Source of the DNA: Thermoplasmata archaeon
Lineage (GTDB): Archaea > Thermoplasmatota > SW-10-69-26 > JACQPN01 > JAJPHT01
Reading direction: 5' to 3'
DNA: 23,929 nt
Assembly: GCA_034667685.1 (NCBI GenBank)
Contig: JAXDQU010000064.1
Location: forward strand, 1-23,929
The translations under genes were made by a program, and so were the position numbers. Positions 2,598-20,408 of this stretch are shown piece after piece; positions within the stretch are counted from its first letter, which is position 1, and the number at the start of each line of letters is the position of its first letter. The notes beneath the pieces are model-generated. The model was given only the letters and a program-made list of their open reading frames with translations, ran no database searches and was not told the origin of the DNA.

Positions 2598-4988
2598 ATG
2601 CCGCCCAAGACGTTCAAGCCGATCGCCGAGAAGCCCGTGCGCGCCATCCAGCCGCCCACGCGGACCGCGCCGCCGAAGACCTTCTCGCCGACGCTGCGCG
2701 GGGAGTTCGTGAAGCGCCTGGAGGACCCGCGCGCGCTGAAGCCCTTCATCGACCGCCCCGCGAAGCTTGCCAGCCACGCGACGATCGCGATGGATGGCCG
2801 CAAGCAGCCGCTCGTGCTCGTGCTGGCGCGCACGCAGTCCGGCGACCCGATCCCCGGCGTCCGCGTGCGCCTGCTCCAGGGCAGCGAGCTGCGCGACGAG
2901 ACGACCACCGACAAGCGCGGAGCGGCGCTGCTCCTCTTCCCCGCGATGTCGGGCACGAAGATGGCCGACATGCAGACGCCCGCGACGCCCACCGACGGGC
3001 GCGTCGAGATCCTGCAGAAGGGGCGCTCGCCGATCACCAAGCACGTCGCGATCCCGATGGGCAAGCAGCACCAGGTGATGGAGCTGACGCTCGAAGCGCC
3101 CACCGAGATCCCGATCGACTCCGCCCCGTCGACGGGGATCGCGTCCAACAACCTCGGCAACCCGCTCACGGACAACCCGCTCGACCGGCTCCCGGCGGAC
3201 TTCACGACCGACCTCTGCCAGGACCTGACGAAGCTGCTCGGGCCCGCGAACGATCCGATCCTCGGGCAGATGGGCGGCGACGACCAGGACTTCCGCAAGC
3301 GCCGCGTGCCGCTCGTGAAGCGCCTCGTGATCCCGCGCATCGGCGAGAGCGTCAACGGCAAGCCGCCCCGGCGCTACCTCGTGCGCGTGCGCCAGGAGTG
3401 GAACTTCCTGGGCTACACGCTGGGCGAGCTCACGCAGGTCGAGCCGCTCGACCCGGGCTCGATCCTCCAGCAGACGACGCAGGCCGCCGAGAAGCTCGTG
3501 TCGAACGCGACGCGCAGCGTGGACGAGCTCGTCTCGCGCGCCACCGACAGCGTCGTCAACGGGCTCCACTCCGCGGGCAGCGTCGACGCCGTGACCGAGC
3601 TGGCCACGAGCGTGCGCACGACGGCCATCGCGGGCGGTGGCGGGTTCTTCCTTCCGCCCTTCGCGTTCGGAGGCGGCGGCGCGGACGCCAAGGTCACGGC
3701 CACCGCGACGTCGCACTCGCGCGTCGACACGTCGCTCGACGTCAACTCCTCGATGCACGCGGCCAAGACGCTCGTGAACCAGGCCACGCGCCTCGTGCAG
3801 TCCACGCAGCGCGACCTGACCAACGCGGTCACGAGCACGCTGGGCAAGGTCAGCCCGCTGCTCTCGCGCGTGACGAACCTCATCCGCTGGACGATGTACG
3901 AGAACTACATGGTCTGCACCCACGTCGAGGACGTGCTCGAAGTGGAGAGCGAGGTCATCGCCGACCTCACGCAGCAGGGCCAGGCGTACCTCTTCACCGA
4001 CGAGCAGATCGTCGACCTGCGCCGCGTCTTCGAGCCGAACCTCCTGGAGCGCCGCCTCGCGCCGCACTTCGACTCGCTCGCGGCCGCCGTGGACGTGCGC
4101 CGCGGCGCCAACCTGCCCATCGTCGCGGTGGACGTCACGCTCGACTACCAGGTCGGGCTCGGCGGCGCCACGGTCGACGTCGCGGTGGGCGAGGGCACAA
4201 CGAGCTTCGTCCTGCGCCCCGGCACCACGCGCGCCACGCAGACGCTCCGGCTCAACGTGCCGGCGAACGCCAATGATATCACCGGCGCGCAGCTCGACCT
4301 GTCGCTCTCGACGCCGCAGTCGATCTTCGGGCCGATCGCGATCCCGAACTCGGCGCAGGTCAACCGCGTCACGCTCGGCTTCGTCACCGCGTCGGGCTAC
4401 CGGCGCACGCTGACCATCCCGCTGGGCAGCACGCTCTCGGCCTCGGGCCAGCCGGGCACCGCGAGCGCCACGCCCGCGTTCAGCGTCCCGCCGCCCGTCG
4501 TGCTCACCGACGCCGACCCGCTGCTGGTGCACGTCAACCACAACAAGACGTACTACTTCGGCCTGCTCTGCCAAGCCGCGCTGGTCGAGCCCGCGCTGCG
4601 CGACGACATGCCGCAGTTCGACGCGTTCAACGGCGACCACCCGATCTGGCGGCTCCCGATCGTCGGCTTCGAGGGCAACCGCGCCCTCATCGTCAAGGAG
4701 GCCGACGCGACGGACGCCGAGGTCAAGACGCTCCTGGCAGACCCGGGCGCGGCGACGCTCATCCAGATCGCGGCGCCGGGCGCGTACGCCGAGGCGCTGC
4801 AAGGGCTGCTGAAGCTCGCGGTGGACCTGGAGAAGATCCACCCCGCGCTGCTGCCGCCGCCCGCGCCGGTGATGCCCCCGCTCGCGATCGTGGACATGAC
4901 CGGGAAGACGATCCCGGTGCTCGGCGGCAACGGCATGGGCGGCACGCCGACCCCGACCCCCACGCCGCTGCCGCTGCCCACCCCCTGA
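2598..4988 (+). CDS. 796-aa uncharacterised protein: N-terminal transthyretin/carboxypeptidase-regulatory-like beta domain, a conserved-looking core with a possible pore-forming hairpin, and a Pro-rich tail
   Basis: Long GC3-rich ORF. Motifs: GDPIPGVRVRL...TTTDKRG; RVRQEWNFLGYTLGEL..VEPLDPG; a Ser/Thr/Gly-rich segment; LLVHVNHNKTYY; PIVGFEGN; IAAPGAYAEA. No signal peptide is evident. Confidence 0.85.
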   Translation: MPPKTFKPIAEKPVRAIQPPTRTAPPKTFSPTLRGEFVKRLEDPRALKPFIDRPAKLASHATIAMDGRKQPLVLVLARTQSGDPIPGVRVRLLQGSELRDETTTDKRGAALLLFPAMSGTKMADMQTPATPTDGRVEILQKGRSPITKHVAIPMGKQHQVMELTLEAPTEIPIDSAPSTGIASNNLGNPLTDNPLDRLPADFTTDLCQDLTKLLGPANDPILGQMGGDDQDFRKRRVPLVKRLVIPRIGESVNGKPPRRYLVRVRQEWNFLGYTLGELTQVEPLDPGSILQQTTQAAEKLVSNATRSVDELVSRATDSVVNGLHSAGSVDAVTELATSVRTTAIAGGGGFFLPPFAFGGGGADAKVTATATSHSRVDTSLDVNSSMHAAKTLVNQATRLVQSTQRDLTNAVTSTLGKVSPLLSRVTNLIRWTMYENYMVCTHVEDVLEVESEVIADLTQQGQAYLFTDEQIVDLRRVFEPNLLERRLAPHFDSLAAAVDVRRGANLPIVAVDVTLDYQVGLGGATVDVAVGEGTTSFVLRPGTTRATQTLRLNVPANANDITGAQLDLSLSTPQSIFGPIAIPNSAQVNRVTLGFVTASGYRRTLTIPLGSTLSASGQPGTASATPAFSVPPPVVLTDADPLLVHVNHNKTYYFGLLCQAALVEPALRDDMPQFDAFNGDHPIWRLPIVGFEGNRALIVKEADATDAEVKTLLADPGAATLIQIAAPGAYAEALQGLLKLAVDLEKIHPALLPPPAPVMPPLAIVDMTGKTIPVLGGNGMGGTPTPTPTPLPLPTP

Positions 4989-5029: not shown

Positions 5030-6094
5030 GTGCGCGCGGCCCCGCTCCTTCTTCTTCTCGCTCTCTTGGCGAGCGGATGCACGGCGCGCGACGTGCCGTC
5101 CCAGCCGCGGCTTCAGTCCGAGCCTCAGCCCCAGCCCCTCGTCGTGGCGGCCTCCGCGCCGCTTCCCGTGGCGCACGCGACGTTCCCGGTCGGCCTCGAC
5201 GTCGACGACACGTGGGTGCGGCCCGGTGATATCATCGTCGCGCATGCGCACGTGCCCGCGGGCGCGCGCGTGACGTGGCTCCTTGCCACGCGCAACCCGT
5301 TCCCCGAGAGCTGGCCGCACCTCCCGCTCGCGCCCGCCATCGTGGCGCCGGCCGCGACGCAGGCCGTGGCGCGTCTGACCGACCCCGGCCGCTACGAGCT
5401 GGCCGCCGGCGGCGCGACGTTCAACGTCACCGTGGACGCGCTGCTCCCGCGCGGGACGCAAGCGCTCGTCGACCTCGTGCGCTCGCCCGAGGGGCTGCGC
5501 GCGGTGCCCGACGAGACGGTCGCGGGCGTGGGCGGGCTGCTCCTCGTGACGAACCACGACGCGAGCCCCGCGCGGCTGGCCGAGCGGGACTGGCTGGGCC
5601 TCCTCCCCGCGAGCGGCCCCGAGGCGCGCATCACGATGCCCGACCACATCGAGCAGGGCGACTACGAGCTGCGCGCGCTCGCCACCGACGCGCGGGGCGG
5701 CATGGGCTCCGCGGACGCGCACATCCTCTACGACGCGCGCAAGCCCGACCGCGACGCGACGTACGGTCCGTTCAACGGCACGCTGCGCCCGGGCGCGGCG
5801 GTCGCCGACCCCTCCTTCGTCGCGCGCTTTCCCCTGCGCACGCTGGACGTGTGGTTCAATGCGACGCCGAAGCTCGCGGGGCCCTCCGACGTCGTGGTCG
5901 AGTTGCTGGGACGCGACGGCGCCGTGATCGACGCGAGCGCGCCCGGCCCGAGCGGCCACCTCGCGCTGCGCGACCTGCCGCCCAACGAGTACACGATGCG
6001 CATCCGCGTGGCGCAGGGCGCGCTCGTCGACTACTCCATCGTGGCGCGGGCGAGCCTCGTGCTCACGACGCCGCAGTCGTTCTTCGATCGCTAG
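5030..6094 (+). CDS. Putative lipoprotein with beta-sandwich (degenerate cupredoxin-like?) domains, 354 aa
   Basis: Signal peptide with lipobox LLLLLALLASG-C, then beta-rich segments (PGRYEL...FNVTV; P.ETVAGVG..LLVTNHD). No copper ligands are seen. Confidence 0.8.
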   Translation: MRAAPLLLLLALLASGCTARDVPSQPRLQSEPQPQPLVVAASAPLPVAHATFPVGLDVDDTWVRPGDIIVAHAHVPAGARVTWLLATRNPFPESWPHLPLAPAIVAPAATQAVARLTDPGRYELAAGGATFNVTVDALLPRGTQALVDLVRSPEGLRAVPDETVAGVGGLLLVTNHDASPARLAERDWLGLLPASGPEARITMPDHIEQGDYELRALATDARGGMGSADAHILYDARKPDRDATYGPFNGTLRPGAAVADPSFVARFPLRTLDVWFNATPKLAGPSDVVVELLGRDGAVIDASAPGPSGHLALRDLPPNEYTMRIRVAQGALVDYSIVARASLVLTTPQSFFDR

Positions 6095-10976: not shown

Positions 10977-10996
10977 TCCACTGGAAATGAGGGGGT
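10977..10996 (+). promoter_or_regulatory. Origin recognition box (ORB) TCCACTGGAAATGAGGGGGT upstream of cdc6
   Basis: Close match to the archaeal ORB (TCCAnTGGAAA plus G-string) in the 400-bp intergenic region before cdc6. Partial copies occur at 10874-10888 and 11078-11088. Confidence 0.8.
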
Positions 10997-11201: not shown

Positions 11202-12485
11202 ATGCCCCCTTCACCGGGGACGAGCAGGAGACTGGAGGGACGACTTACGACAAGGGATGGGCTATTCGACTCGCTGCTGCGCAGCGAGCCTATGTTCAGG
11301 AACAAGGAGGTGCTCCGGCCGAGCTACACGCCCGAGGAGCTGCCCCACCGCCAGGCGCAGATCAACCAGCTCGCCACGATCCTCGTGGCGGCGCTGCGCG
11401 GCGAGACGCCCAGCAACGTCTTCATCTACGGCAAGACGGGCACGGGCAAGACGGCCGTCACGCGCTTCGTGGGCAAGGAGCTCCAGCGCACCGGCCAGGA
11501 GAAGGACCGCAACGTCTTCTTCATCTACATCAACTGCGAGCTGGTCGACACGCAGTACCGCGTGCTGACGCACATCGCGAACCACTTCATCGAGGACTGG
11601 AACGACCGCATCCCGTTCACGGGCTGGCCCACCGATGAAGTGTATGACAAGCTGAAGCGGAAGATCGACGAGAAGGACGGCGCGTGCATCATCGTCCTCG
11701 ACGAGATCGACAAGCTCGTGTTCAAGGCCGGCGACGACGTGCTCTACAACCTGAGCCGCATCAACGACGACCTGAAGCGCGCGAAGGTCTCGGTCATCGG
11801 CATCTCGAACGATCTGAAGTTCACCGAGTTCCTCGACCCGCGCGTGAAGTCGAGCCTCGGCGAGGAGGAAGTGATCTTCCCGCCCTACGACGCCGTGCAG
11901 CTCCAGGACATCCTGCGCCAGCGCGCCACGGTCGCGTTCAAGGAGGACTCGCTCGAGGTGAGCGTCATCCCGCTCTGCGCCGCGCTCGCGGCCCAGGAGC
12001 ACGGCGACGCCCGCCGCGCGCTCGACCTGCTCCGTGTCGCCGCCGAGCTGGCGGAGCGCGAGGGCCAGAAGACGATCAGCGAGAAGTACGTCCGCAAGGC
12101 GCAGAACAAGATCGAGCTCGACCGCGTCACCGAGGTCGTGCGCACGCTGCCCACGCAGAGCAAGCTCGTGCTCCTCGCCACGATCCTCGGCGAGGAGGAC
12201 GGCACCAAGGGCCTGACGACGGGCGAGGTGTACGACACGTACCGCGAGCTCTGCCAGGCCGCCCACATGGACGTGCTCACGCAGCGCCGCGTCACGGACC
12301 TCATCAGCGAGCTCGACATGCTCGGCATCCTCCAGGCGCGCGTCATCTCCAAGGGGCGCTACGGGCGCACCAAGGAGATCCAGATGAGCGTCCCGCTGGA
12401 GGAGACGAAGGCCGTGCTCCGCGAGGACGCCGTGCTGGAGCCCATCGTCGGGTTCTCGCCCAAGAAGCAGGCGCGGCTGTTCTGA
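11202..12485 (+). CDS. cdc6: Orc1/Cdc6 DNA replication initiator
   Basis: LRPSYTPEELPHR, Walker A GKTGTGKT, YINC, TGWPT, Walker B IIVLDEID, RVKSSL, GDARRALDLL and the winged helix RRVTDLISELDMLGI...SKGRYGRT. The start is uncertain (11202, ~11244 or 11292). Confidence 0.98.
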   Translation: MPPSPGTSRRLEGRLTTRDGLFDSLLRSEPMFRNKEVLRPSYTPEELPHRQAQINQLATILVAALRGETPSNVFIYGKTGTGKTAVTRFVGKELQRTGQEKDRNVFFIYINCELVDTQYRVLTHIANHFIEDWNDRIPFTGWPTDEVYDKLKRKIDEKDGACIIVLDEIDKLVFKAGDDVLYNLSRINDDLKRAKVSVIGISNDLKFTEFLDPRVKSSLGEEEVIFPPYDAVQLQDILRQRATVAFKEDSLEVSVIPLCAALAAQEHGDARRALDLLRVAAELAEREGQKTISEKYVRKAQNKIELDRVTEVVRTLPTQSKLVLLATILGEEDGTKGLTTGEVYDTYRELCQAAHMDVLTQRRVTDLISELDMLGILQARVISKGRYGRTKEIQMSVPLEETKAVLREDAVLEPIVGFSPKKQARLF

Positions 12486-12495
12486 GGGCCCCGCC

Positions 12496-13047
12496 TCACC
12501 GGCAAGGAATCCCCGGAGCGACGCACGCGACGAGATGATGCGTCACGAGCGCCGCTCCGGCGAGATCGAGGACGAGGAGTCCCAGCAAGACCCACCGGGC
12601 CCAGTCGGTCGCGCTCCAGCGGCGGATGTCGTCGTTGGCGTACTTGTCCGGATCTGCCAGGATCCTCGCCACCTTCTTCTGCGTCGCCACCGGCCCCAAG
12701 GAGAACGCGCCGAGCGCCACGCTCTCGAACCCCGGGATCGGTCCTGCGAGGCCGAGGGACGCCTCGATCATCGTCTTCTTGGCGACGAGCGCGCGGTAGT
12801 AGCCCTTGTTGGCCTTCAGCACGCGCAGCCCCACCCCGGCCAGCCCTGCCCCGCCCACGAGGACGGCGATCAGCAGGCCATCGACGATCGCGGAATCCGC
12901 GACCTGGAGGAGCGTGACGGCCGCGGCCAGGACGGACGCGTTGAGCAGGACGAAGAACTGGTTCGTCGACCCTTGCCGGTCGACCTGCGCTTCGACGAGG
13001 CCCACCGAGGGCTCGTAGAGCCTCCAATGCGATTCGGGATCGGGCAT
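12496..13047 (-). CDS. ~183-aa 3-TM membrane protein resembling RipA-family/small oligomeric pore-like proteins
   Basis: Pattern Y...DRQ..TNQFF.LLN, then two TMs, then Y.RALVAKK..IE..L, then a C-terminal TM. Start is ATG 13047 or 13059. The family is recalled from pattern only. Confidence 0.7.
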   Translation of the reverse strand: MPDPESHWRLYEPSVGLVEAQVDRQGSTNQFFVLLNASVLAAAVTLLQVADSAIVDGLLIAVLVGGAGLAGVGLRVLKANKGYYRALVAKKTMIEASLGLAGPIPGFESVALGAFSLGPVATQKKVARILADPDKYANDDIRRWSATDWARWVLLGLLVLDLAGAALVTHHLVACVAPGIPCR

Positions 13048-13090
13048 CGCGGCTTCCATGCGCCCAGGATGGAAGACCCTTCTCCAGAGG

Positions 13091-13594
13091 TCACAGCACG
13101 CCAAGGCCGTCGGCGAACCGGAAGACGCGCTCGAAGGTGGGGCTGAACGTGCCGGCGCCCTCGCGAAGGAGACGGCGGATCTCGCCGACGGGAAGGAAGC
13201 TCGCCTCCGCAACCTCCGTGGCATCCAACGTGAACGGGCCCTCGTGCTGCGCGAGGAAGACGCCGATGAACTTCCGGCGCGGACCTTCATCGAGCCACGT
13301 GGTGCCCAGGTCCCGGAGCGCATCGAGCTGGACGCCAAGCTCCTCGCGGGCTTCCCGCTGGGCAGCCGACGCGTAGGATTCGCCGGATCGGACGTGGCCC
13401 GCCACGGAGGAGCCGAGCGCGAACGAGGACGCCTTCGATGGCGCCAGGCGCTGGATCAGGATCCGCCCTCGGCCATCCAGAACGAGGACGTGGACCACGC
13501 GGAAGTTCGATCCGTCCGCCTTCAGCGCAGCACGGGATACCGCGCCGACGACGCGGTCATCGACGTCCACGGCGTCGACGATCTCCTCCGTCAC
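13091..13594 (-). CDS. NUDIX hydrolase, type-1 IDI/YfcD-like subgroup (167 aa)
   Basis: EIVDAVDVDDRVVG..SR, RVVHVLVLD..GRILIQR and the Nudix box GHVRSGESYASAAQREAREELGV. The GTG overlaps the upstream stop (GTGA). Confidence 0.9.
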   Translation of the reverse strand: MTEEIVDAVDVDDRVVGAVSRAALKADGSNFRVVHVLVLDGRGRILIQRLAPSKASSFALGSSVAGHVRSGESYASAAQREAREELGVQLDALRDLGTTWLDEGPRRKFIGVFLAQHEGPFTLDATEVAEASFLPVGEIRRLLREGAGTFSPTFERVFRFADGLGVL

Positions 13595-13767
13595 CGGCCG
13601 CCGCCCCCCTTGCGTCGTTTCGGGGCGCTGTCTCCCAGATCGTCCTGGATGACGACGAGGACGCGCCGCCCGACGTAGTCGGAGAAGCCCGAGATGCGCC
13701 CGCCCGTGCCGACCTTGGCGGGGATCATGGCGACGACGCCGTCCAGTTCCGTCCGCGAGCCAGGCAC
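13591..13767 (-). CDS. 58-aa DUF2080/AbrB-like small putative DNA-binding protein
   Basis: ELDGVVAMIPAKVGTGGRISGFSDYVGRRVLVVIQ fits a swapped-hairpin pattern. The GTG is 29 nt below a TTGAAG box (13791-13796), and the stop is coupled to the NUDIX start. Confidence 0.65.
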   Translation of the reverse strand: MPGSRTELDGVVAMIPAKVGTGGRISGFSDYVGRRVLVVIQDDLGDSAPKRRKGGGGR

Positions 13768-13797
13768 GACGCCGCATCGGCGGCTCTGAGCTTCAAC

Positions 13798-15637: not shown

Positions 15638-16387
15638 TCACCGGCCGCGGAAGAGGCGCAGCGCGAGCATGTGGTCGAGCCCCGCGCGCCGGATGCCCTG
15701 CGCCGCGCTCTCGACGTCGTAGGGCACGCGCATGAGGCGGACCGTGCGCGTCTCGAAGTCCAGGACGGCGTAGGCTGCGCGCGTGTCGCCGTCGCGCGGC
15801 TGGCCCACCGAGCCCGGGTTCACGACGAGGGGCGCGTCGGCCGCGCCGGTGGTGGACTCCGCGAAGCCGTGCGCCGTCCATCCCGCGCGGGGCGAGCCGG
15901 ACTTGGGAAGCGCGACGTAGGGCAGGTGCGTGTGGCCCAGCAGGATCACGTCCGCGACGCCGGTCCAGCGGCGCTGCCCTTCAGCCGCGTCGTCGGGGCG
16001 AACGTACTCGTGGATCGGATCGTCCGGGCTTCCGTGCGCGAGCAGGACCTTGAGGCCGCCCACCTGGCGCGTGAGCGTGCTGGGCAGCGCAAAGAGGCGC
16101 GCGCGCTCGGGCGGCGTGAGGATCTGCGCGTGCATGCGCGCGGCCGCAGCGGCGATCGGGTTGAAGTCGTCCATCTCGCCCGTGGCGACGGCGTGGTCGT
16201 GGTTTCCCTTCACGATCGTGCGCGTCCGCGCCTCGATGAGGTCAAGGGCGCGCTGGGGCGATCCGCCGTATCCCACGATGTCGCCCAGGCACCAGATCTC
16301 GCTGACGCCCTGCTCCGCGACGTCCTTGAGGACCGCTTGCAACGCCTCCTCGTTGGCGTGGAGGTCCGACATGATCGCGACACGCAT
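15638..16387 (-). CDS. Calcineurin-like metallophosphoesterase (YfcE/MJ0912-like), 249 aa
   Basis: Motifs SDLHAN, GDIVGYG, GNHD, HGSP, GHTH and NPGSVGQPRDGD. Confidence 0.95.
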   Translation of the reverse strand: MRVAIMSDLHANEEALQAVLKDVAEQGVSEIWCLGDIVGYGGSPQRALDLIEARTRTIVKGNHDHAVATGEMDDFNPIAAAAARMHAQILTPPERARLFALPSTLTRQVGGLKVLLAHGSPDDPIHEYVRPDDAAEGQRRWTGVADVILLGHTHLPYVALPKSGSPRAGWTAHGFAESTTGAADAPLVVNPGSVGQPRDGDTRAAYAVLDFETRTVRLMRVPYDVESAAQGIRRAGLDHMLALRLFRGR

Positions 16388-16567: not shown

Positions 16568-16796
16568 CTCCAGACCCCCCACCCCATGTCTTCGGCTGGA
16601 GGGGCTGGAAGGAGGGGAGAGGGTCTCGACTCCCTCCTTGCCTCTGATAAGAAAATCCCTGTTGGTTATCAAACTCATCCTATATGATGCTTCTGAAGCA
16701 TCGCGATGGCGAAGCGGCGACCGATCGACGGATGAGACGGAAATCCACGATCCGTTCCAGGTCTCCACGCGAAGGAACGGGGTTGGGGTCGTGGAG
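16568..16796. other. Candidate replication origin: inverted ORB/G-string arms flanking an AT-rich unwinding element
   Basis: Arms 16568-16613 and 16751-16796 form an imperfect inverted repeat, each containing TCCAnnnGAAGnnAnGGGGT plus an extra G-run. The core 16645-16701 has 20 G+C in 57 nt. Confidence 0.7.
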
Positions 16797-16805
16797 GAAA
16801 ATGGC

Positions 16806-18221
16806 TCATGGCTCGCGGGCGTTCGCCGGACCTGTCCGCTGGACCTCGCGGAGCGCGCCACCGCCCACCTCACGGATCTTCTCGACGAGCGTCGCGCGCA
16901 GGCTGCGCTTGACCTCGAAGCGCAGGCGCAGCTCGCCTCCGCGCGTCAGGTCGAGGACGTCCGCGTGGTCGTGGATCCAGGCGATCAGCGATTCCGACGA
17001 GGAGGTGGCTGGGAGCGCGACCTCGTACTCGTCGTAGTCCGGGATCAGCGCGTACAGCTTCTCGTAGATCGCATCCAGCCCCACGCGATCGCGGGCCGAG
17101 ACGCGCACCGTGAGCGCGGGATCCAGGAGCCCCAGCCCGCGCAGCGCATCCTCCTTCTGGGCGAGCGCGGCCGGATCGACCTTGTCGACCTTGTTGAGCG
17201 CGACGAGCACCGGCGCCAGCTCGAACTCGTAGAGGATGCGCAGCGAGGAGCGCAGCCGGCGCGTCATCTCGTCGACCGGATCGGAGGCGTCGAGCACCAG
17301 GAGGATCACGTCGGCCATCGCGATCTCCTCCAGCGTGGAGTGGAACGCCTCGACCATCCACGGGGGAAGGTCCTCGATGAAGCCGACCGTGTCGGTGACG
17401 AGGATCTCGCGCTTCTCGCTCTGCGCCCTGCTCGTCTTCGTCGAGAGCGTCGAGAAGTAACGGTTCTCCACGAGCGTCTCGCGGTCGCTCAGGGCGCGCA
17501 GCAGGCTCGACTTGCCCGCGTTGGTGTAACCTGCGAGCGACACCAGATGGAAGCCGCCGCGGCGACGGTGCTTGCGGCGCAGGTCGCGCTCGCGGCGCAT
17601 GCGCTCCAGCTCGCGGCGGATCTTCACCATGCGGCGCTTCATCGTATCGTGGTATTCGTTGACGCCGTACTGGCCGCCGCCGAACATCGCCGCTTGGCGC
17701 TCGCCGCGCTTCTCGAGGTTGATCGCCTCCTTGACGAGCGGCATCTCGTACTGGAGCGTCGCGAGCTCGACCTGGAGCCGCGCCTCGGGCGATCGGGCGC
17801 GCTCGCGGAAGATCTCGAGGATGAGCCGGGTCCTGTCGTAGACCTCGACGCGCTCCAGGTCCGGGTCGCGCGATCCGGCCGAACTCCGGTTCGGCCTCTC
17901 GCGACCGCGTTCGCGCGTCCGCGATCGCACCTCGTCGGTGAAGGCCTGCTGGAGGTTGAAGATCTGCGAGGGCTTCAGCGCCGCGTTCACGACCACGAGG
18001 TCCGCGCCCAGTCCCACGAACGCCTGCGCCGCCTCCTCGATCTTGCCGCTGCCCAGGAAGAGCGAGGGGTCGGGCTGCGGGCGCCGCTGGATCACGGTGC
18101 CCGCGAGGTCCACGCCGAGCGCGAAGACGAGCTCCTCCATCTCCGCGGTATCGGGGCGGCTCGTGAGCAGCAGCGCTTTCCTGCGGCCGGGCAACGCGCC
18201 CCATCGGTCCTGTTCGGACAT
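16806..18221 (-). CDS. hflX: GTPase HflX
   Basis: FLGSGK.EE, DR..LILEIF..RA.S.EA.LQVELA, G1 GYTNAGKSS, FSTL, DTVGFI...AFHSTLEE and NKVD. Confidence 0.97.
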   Translation of the reverse strand: MSEQDRWGALPGRRKALLLTSRPDTAEMEELVFALGVDLAGTVIQRRPQPDPSLFLGSGKIEEAAQAFVGLGADLVVVNAALKPSQIFNLQQAFTDEVRSRTRERGRERPNRSSAGSRDPDLERVEVYDRTRLILEIFRERARSPEARLQVELATLQYEMPLVKEAINLEKRGERQAAMFGGGQYGVNEYHDTMKRRMVKIRRELERMRRERDLRRKHRRRGGFHLVSLAGYTNAGKSSLLRALSDRETLVENRYFSTLSTKTSRAQSEKREILVTDTVGFIEDLPPWMVEAFHSTLEEIAMADVILLVLDASDPVDEMTRRLRSSLRILYEFELAPVLVALNKVDKVDPAALAQKEDALRGLGLLDPALTVRVSARDRVGLDAIYEKLYALIPDYDEYEVALPATSSSESLIAWIHDHADVLDLTRGGELRLRFEVKRSLRATLVEKIREVGGGALREVQRTGPANAREP

Positions 18222-20087: not shown

Positions 20088-20339
20088 TCAGAAGCCGGGC
20101 TGGTAGGTCGAGACGACGATGACGTCGCGGATCGACTTCACGTTCTCGAAGGGGAAGACGACGTAGCCGCGGTTGTCGCGCTTGAAGAGACGCGGGTCGA
20201 CGTCGTCCGCGGGCTCGACGAGGACCTCGGCGAGCTCGCCGGTGCGTTCGTTGACGGACACGTTGCGAAGGCGGCCGAGCATCGTGCCGTCGTCGGACAT
20301 GACGGTCTTGCCGCGGATGTCGGTGGCGAGGAGCTTCAT
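20088..20339 (-). CDS. cdpB2: PRC-barrel protein, most like the archaeal cell-division protein CdpB2 (83 aa)
   Basis: LA.DI.GK.VM.DDG..LG.L.N...N..TG.L..VLVEP...F..D..G...P...V.SI.D.IVV matches the CdpB2 pattern as I recall it. The paralog assignment is less certain than the fold. Confidence 0.8.
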   Translation of the reverse strand: MKLLATDIRGKTVMSDDGTMLGRLRNVSVNERTGELAEVLVEPADDVDPRLFKRDNRGYVVFPFENVKSIRDVIVVSTYQPGF

Positions 20340-20408
20340 GAGTGCACCCATCCCTTGGTGGTGGCGCATCATCCGTGGCGGCCTTACTTAGAGCTACGCA
20401 TTTTGAAA

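Follow-up and report, generated by a model that had tools for sequence, protein, structure and literature searches.

A probable replication origin detached from cdc6, between hflX and a phosphoesterase gene, in an order of Thermoplasmatota

The window analysed here (23,929 bp) is an entire contig of a Thermoplasmata archaeon genome of 3.48 Mb, 71% GC and 124 contigs. It contains an orc1/cdc6 gene and, in a separate gap between an hflX GTPase gene and a phosphoesterase gene, two inverted ORBs on either side of an AT-rich tract. The features are as follows.

10977-10996, plus strand: lone ORB upstream of cdc6, with no inverted partner (pattern and matrix scan)
11202-12485, plus strand: Orc1-1-type orc1/cdc6 gene with an uncertain start codon, predicted to encode the cognate initiator (NF001625, 646.6 bits against a cut-off of 501)
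15638-16387, minus strand: YfcE-like metallophosphoesterase gene (PF12850; TIGR00040 below its cut-off)
16581-16600, minus strand: phosphoesterase-proximal ORB, with an outward second G run at 16575-16580 (sequence; second-ranked site of the genome)
16601-16644, no strand: inner flank, a purine-rich stretch followed by a pyrimidine-rich one, containing a second TTCCA half-site (sequence)
16645-16701, no strand: AT-rich tract, predicted duplex-unwinding element (DUE), 35% GC
16648-16693, minus strand: weakly conserved core of about 40-45 bp within the AT-rich tract (alignment and held-out tests)
16764-16783, plus strand: hflX-proximal ORB, with an outward second G run at 16785-16788 (sequence; first-ranked site of the genome)
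16806-18221, minus strand: hflX GTPase gene (TIGR03156, 273.7 bits against a cut-off of 216.75)
20088-20372, minus strand: PRC-barrel gene (PF05239)

The element is intergenic, single-copy and conserved in position; hflX ends 10 bp away from it, and the phosphoesterase gene starts on its other side. An earlier note on this DNA had described two 20-mers, each followed by a second G run pointing outward, around an AT-rich tract of about 35% GC, and had recognized in them the archaeal oriC layout of inverted ORBs around an unwinding element. Both 20-mers lie at the coordinates and on the strands that it gave, the two G runs are present, and all parts occur in the order ORB(-)/DUE/ORB(+) that is the standard layout of an archaeal origin. 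The letters that it quoted for the two arms are likewise correct, but the quoted arms measure 43 and 42 bases rather than about 46. Both boxes carry the TCC and GAA cores and the G-string of the ORB consensus, and 25 of the outer 34 arm positions match without gaps (hand count), while a comparison of the inner flanks of the two arms revealed no shared sequence between them; the compositional trend of the inner flank from purine-rich to pyrimidine-rich is also seen in 12 genomes. The AT-rich tract is the lowest-GC 57-base window of the whole contig, and only four tracts in the genome are as GC-poor.

A PRC-barrel gene repeatedly borders the predicted origin or lies near it (in the window and at loci L077, L131, L132, L149 and L171), adjoining it in the sister family and in other Thermoplasmatota; the PRC-barrel family is reported to include haloarchaeal cell-division proteins. 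Between cdc6 and the origin block, genes of the 8xMP and Nudix families (12496-13777) are likely a recent insertion and are not found at this place in genome G002. Two further ORFs of the window, of 796 aa (2598-4988) and 354 aa (5030-6094), gave no Pfam or NCBIfam match.

The ORB core pattern matched the genome at six positions, three of them within the window, against 0.83 expected from word frequencies, and the number of inverted pairs expected by chance in the genome is 4e-5. The earlier note had proposed scanning the genome with an ORB position weight matrix. With a matrix built from eight genomes of other genera of the order, the two boxes were the top two of the 154 sites that scored more than 8 bits, and the pair was unique, scoring 56.1 against 18.5 for the runner-up. 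With a matrix built from 18 boxes outside the order, the pair still came first, narrowly (32.7 against 30.3 for a cluster on contig C25), and one of 20 column-shuffled control matrices beat the pair score; on this GAAA-dominated matrix the two boxes reached only 18.6 and 14.1 bits, with the cdc6 box above them at 30.7. The cluster on C25 (positions 384-524, L120) comprises three ORB-like boxes near the contig end, without an AT-rich tract, and is possibly a titration or regulatory site. Other strong lone boxes are intergenic, at C10:18148 (malate synthase and ABC transporter genes), C35:12776 (pfkB and gatB) and C28:37344 (unidentified genes).

Conservation was assessed in 21 genomes of the class, 15 of them from this Thermoplasmatota order, with at most one mismatch allowed in the pair search. 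Conservation of the arms in relatives, on which the earlier note had made its reading depend, was borne out, the full pair being present in 12 of the 15 order genomes (G000, G002-G005 and G007-G013), from four families. In the 13 order genomes that could be tested box by box, which leaves aside G001, whose hflX lies at a contig end, and G014, where the genes did not turn up, the phosphoesterase-proximal box has an orthologue in all 13 and the hflX-proximal box in 12; in G006, which has the former along with the AT-rich tract, a search allowing two mismatches gave no opposite box. In the full-pair genomes the pair lies downstream of hflX, with a 2-kb insertion in G002, and immediately precedes the phosphoesterase gene in 11 of them, the contig of the twelfth, G013, stopping 180 bp past the box; the phosphoesterase query found no match in G001, G013, G014, G017 and G019. 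The GC minimum between the boxes is 0.18-0.42 in these 12 genomes, and the lowest-GC 57-mer of the examined stretch falls between the boxes in 10 of 11 relatives.

Outside the order, three of the six genomes of the sister family have the pair at the 3' end of a PRC-barrel gene behind FEN-1, away from cdc6, and a fourth has a single box only. Pair and cdc6 are on different contigs in G023, G034, G036 and G038, and a similar scan of 80 cdc6 loci found 18 with a pair, many directly upstream of cdc6 (e.g., L149, L152, L171 and L175) and four (L206 and L214-L216) with the pair 0.9-4.5 kb from it. Given the sister-family pairs, those on other contigs and those at 0.9-4.5 kb, detachment is common in the phylum. 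Ten metagenome loci were also inspected: visual comparison shows the layout, at the cost of more mismatches, in L218 and L222; the boxes of L219 and L220 are among those counted above, so these two loci are not independent; L221 stops just past hflX; and five further loci are distant GTPases. A sequencing run from another study contains the two halves of the element without a mismatch, on two pieces that overlap by only 20 bases, and none of the assembled contigs of the sequencing runs spans cdc6 to the element. Variant arrangements were seen in Thermoplasmatota-like loci L143, L145 and L196, where ORBs flank hflX on both sides next to cdc6 (one ORB lying inside the 5' coding part of hflX in two of them), and at L127:4991-6444, L129 and L130, where inverted boxes at least 1.4 kb apart enclose a gene that is cdc6 in two cases.

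The predicted initiator is intact where it should contact DNA. Its best structure match is 2QBY chain A; it keeps the residues equivalent to Orc1-1 R341, R365 and G120 (mapped by a constant offset of 11), and its ISM and winged-helix contacts are preserved, with an ISM leucine replaced by tryptophan as in nearly all relatives examined. The earlier note had placed an ORB upstream of cdc6 and the origin about 4 kb from its initiator gene, and the coordinates agree, with the box at 10977-10996 and the end of cdc6 (12485) 4.1 kb and several genes away from the element. The gap upstream of cdc6 has a best opposite-strand score of 5.3 bits and a GC minimum of 0.45-0.47, and its lone box is likely autoregulatory or a relic of the ancestral origin. 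The distance from cdc6 to the pair is 2.6-17 kb in the seven genomes that have both on one contig. Within 700 bp upstream of cdc6, 8 of 14 order genomes have one sense box and 6 have no box; an inverted pair is absent from this interval in all 14, so that the detachment from cdc6 described in the earlier note is a trait of the lineage. No box above 10 bits was found near the three other orc1/cdc6 paralogues, and the match to a cdc6 paralogue at C103:2114-3305 is broken into two parts that lie in different frames or ORFs.

Lone boxes also recur at other replication genes. The PolD large-subunit gene is preceded by a single antisense box, 186-438 bp ahead of the query start, in 8 of the 14 order genomes with sequence there and in none of five from the sister family; in this genome it is at L119:5732-5751 (contig C2), between the two PolD genes, and it was also recorded at L228-L248. 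Cdc6 is reported to bind boxes in Thermococcales dp1 (PMC1904270); the PolD box may have a regulatory role. In distant Thermoplasmatota, lone ORBs were observed directly before MCM (L135:4115-4134), at the end of the PolD small-subunit gene (L128:2222-2241) and directly before hflX (L017:1660-1679).

Within the element, box-to-box spacing ranges from 71 to 873 bp among order genomes, yet 11 of 12 genomes have their GC minimum at a distance of 43-108 bp from the box next to the phosphoesterase gene, the exception being G010 at 147 bp. Over about 45 columns, the AT-rich part can be aligned with almost no gaps, but no column is invariant. In held-out tests, each with an alignment and matrix made afresh from the other genomes (for members of this genus, from genomes outside it), 7 of 13 genomes outscored dinucleotide shuffles (p<0.05), with the site 45-63 bp from the box next to the phosphoesterase gene, and the other six gave p values of 0.06-0.55; the genomes are kin, and the tests are therefore not independent trials. 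A looser motif test that included the tested rows in the alignment was significant in 13 of 14, and we used the stricter figure of 7 of 13. Controls reached p<0.05 in 0 of 11 cases for the other arm (two at 0.050), 1 of 19 for other origins and 0 of 4 for cdc6 boxes, and the site at 16648-16693 is the motif's best in the genome. The core of 40-45 bp is a candidate, no more, for a protein-binding site like the Sulfolobus ucm, a motif inside the DUE that is described as bound by a dedicated protein and required for firing (PMC12141716).

The earlier note had also attributed a variant GAAG box to the lineage, which overstated the case: position 11 of 24 origin boxes is G in 13, A in 10 and C in 1. 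GAAG is enriched in the order, making up 23 of 46 exact pattern matches there, against 1 of 8 in the sister family and 0 of 32 in 20 other genomes (hand count), with two matches in the order for a reversed-pattern control. Phylum-wide, the GAAG pattern occurs in 110 of 301 genomes, which is weak evidence given the many control matches. A changed initiator specificity was considered and rejected, the ISM, recognition helix and wing of Cdc6 being identical in GAAG (G000 and G003) and GAAA (G002 and G004) genomes. Because these DNA-binding segments are the same and GAAG boxes also flank cdc6 in unrelated Thermoplasmatota loci (L149 and L196), GAAG is best read as a tolerated polymorphism or drift; in binding studies, TTCC and GAA are reported as the conserved cores (PMC1904270). 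A second G run lies beyond 19 of the 24 origin boxes, comparable to the extended G-strings described in haloarchaea (PMC3936714) and the GGGGGT extension described in Methanomassiliicoccales (PMC4153887, Table 2).

On this sequence evidence, we consider the inverted ORB pair to be, probably, a chromosomal origin in use by the Orc1-1-type Cdc6 encoded 4 kb away. The most serious competitor, which we regard as unlikely, is that Cdc6 binds the pair but that the site is a dormant or back-up origin, or titrates the initiator, replication proceeding mainly by recombination or from another origin. Such an origin is described in Thermococcus kodakarensis, where an origin of this type is reported to be dispensable and to lack a marker gradient (PMC5663688), and a titrating precedent is the ORB cluster oriC2D of Haloarcula (PMC3936714). 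In favour of this alternative, no skew inflection was seen at the element. On two contigs of the order, the skew measured at four-fold sites, with a correction for gene strand, did not change significantly across it (-0.016 before and -0.001 after in G003, -0.004 and -0.005 in G009), and on a third contig, in G016 of the sister family, it went from +0.034 to -0.027, a difference of the unexpected sign. The test had little power: the errors were 0.009-0.023 with gene-to-gene scatter left out of the model, and the contigs, each of 98-106 kb, were too short. Because the genome is in 124 contigs, another origin may sit in a gap. The 873-bp spacing in G007, far from the 130-bp Sulfolobus module, also counts against an origin. 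Against titration, the known site, as described, is a dense cluster of 11 boxes, whereas the present element has a pair, in inverted orientation on either side of an AT-rich tract, that is kept across the order.

Readings in which the pair is neither a Cdc6-1 origin in use nor a dormant or titrating site are, even taken together, quite unlikely. Origins usually adjoin cdc6, and the cdc6-adjacent box is the one nearest the general consensus, so the gap upstream of cdc6 might be the true origin, with the pair serving as a Cdc6 operator and the AT-rich tract as the phosphoesterase promoter; one box does lie 15-280 bp before the phosphoesterase start. That gap, however, holds one box with no partner and no strongly AT-rich tract, has no box at all in 6 of 14 genomes, and would fall among the one-box gaps that PMC3528665 is reported to count as deficient origins, while the inverted box at the hflX stop codon would be superfluous in an operator, and in the sister family a different gene adjoins the pair; we regard this alternative as improbable. 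A scan for sigma-70 promoters and terminators found no match, archaeal promoters being outside its models. That the arms are MITE ends or the stem of a structured RNA is the most improbable of the alternatives. The strand folds better than shuffles (z -3.84), and the outer G runs are slightly more alike within than between genomes (0.57 against 0.48, p 0.02), but neither the inner flanks (p 0.32) nor the variable box positions (p 0.07) co-vary between the arms, and the letters common to the arms are those of the ORB consensus. No Rfam family was reached at threshold (best 25.7 bits against 40). The dispersed copies that the earlier note had named as a sign of MITE ends were not encountered, BLAST finding no second copy above a 17-base match in the genome, and the same single locus recurs across the order; on the single locus, the missing Rfam family and the lack of co-variation, both MITE and structured RNA were rejected.

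If the pair is an origin in use, each box would bind one Cdc6 monomer with fixed polarity, by analogy with Sulfolobus oriC1 as described in PMC6742236 and PMC12141716, the AT-rich tract would open between the boxes, and the two bound Cdc6 proteins would load the MCM helicase onto the intervening DNA. Cdc6 would act in trans from a gene kilobases away, and adjacency of the origin to cdc6 would therefore be unneeded. A more elaborate version, which we put forward tentatively, is a one-sided origin: the core at a fixed distance from one box would be the site of an unknown activator, the Thermoplasmatota counterpart of Sulfolobus ucm/UBP, with the second box acting from up to 870 bp, and the lone cdc6 and PolD boxes would mean that Cdc6 also regulates the transcription of replication genes, a function separate from its origin.

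Gene orders suggest how the detachment may have come about. In G011 the sequence is PRC, phosphoesterase, ORB(-), AT-rich tract, ORB(+), ORB(+), hflX, ORB(+), cdc6. This is the standard orientation, with the last box separated from the pair by hflX, and the gene order is the same in G006 and G008; in other Thermoplasmatota (L149 and L171) the order is PRC, pair, cdc6, with nothing between; in this genus (G000, G002 and G003) cdc6 is on the other side, pointing to the element. The ancestral order may thus have been origin, further box and cdc6, with hflX between the pair and the cdc6-proximal box, as still seen in G011; cdc6 may later have been relocated or flipped by rearrangements that left the pair in place beside hflX and the phosphoesterase gene.

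A likely origin is thereby placed for a whole uncultured archaeal order, in which the rule of looking beside cdc6 would choose the wrong gap. According to its method description, Ori-Finder-Arch gives priority to a box-containing gap that adjoins the initiator gene and requires three boxes at a detached site; by our reading of these two rules, a two-box detached element is probably missed. The range of spacings found in nature and the link of the core to a single box offer testable constraints on helicase loading by two initiators, and the core bears on whether other archaeal lineages have ucm-like elements, as the authors of PMC12141716 ask. The open literature yielded no paper linking hflX, cdc6 and an archaeal origin and none on this lineage; subscription journals, DoriC and the tables of the Ori-Finder-Arch preprint lay outside the search and may list the site.

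Among known systems, the element is like oriC1 of Sulfolobus/Saccharolobus (ORB3-DUE-ORB2, Orc1-1; PMC12141716 and PMC6742236) in its inverted ORBs around an AT-rich tract and in an initiator with the same DNA-contact residues; in the descriptions given there, however, oriC1 adjoins orc1-1 and is a 130-bp module with ucm midway, whereas here cdc6 is 2.6-17 kb off, the boxes are 71-873 bp apart and the core keeps to one of them. The predicted origins of Methanomassiliicoccales, from the same phylum (PMC4153887, Table 2), share inverted-then-forward ORB pairs, GGGGGT on several boxes, variable spacing (39-256 bp in theirs) and lone boxes elsewhere; as listed there, they lie beside orc1/cdc6.1 and are all GAAA, whereas here genes intervene, half of the boxes are GAAG and most lack the full TTCCA-N-TGGAA dyad. 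In haloarchaeal oriC1 (PMC3936714 and PMC4010727) a second G run likewise lies outside the box and a GTP-binding-protein gene flanks the origin; that origin is described as adjoining cdc6, and the G-rich inverted enhancer within both of its boxes has no conserved counterpart here. The Thermococcales dp1 ORB cluster (PMC1904270) resembles the PolD boxes in placing Cdc6 boxes at PolD genes outside the origin, whereas here the box is single and intergenic, precedes the large-subunit gene and, in this genome, has no linkage to the origin. Closest in placement are Aeropyrum pernix, where neither cdc6 gene is reported to adjoin its origins (PMC5333045), and the Hyperthermus-type 'Hbu' oriC, with no adjacent initiator gene (Ori-Finder-Arch preprint, Fig. 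1 legend), in which ORB(-)/DUE/ORB(+) works, or is predicted to work, away from cdc6; both are crenarchaeal, whereas here cdc6 is usually within a few kilobases and keeps a lone box. The element does not adjoin its initiator gene; since the A. pernix and 'Hbu' origins lack an adjacent cdc6, this adjacency is typical of oriC1 rather than required, and every other testable defining feature of an oriC1-type origin was found. Origins away from cdc6 and extended G-strings have thus already been described, and what is new is the gene neighbourhood with hflX and, in detail, the variable spacing with the AT-rich tract near one box, the weak core and the recurrent lone PolD box.
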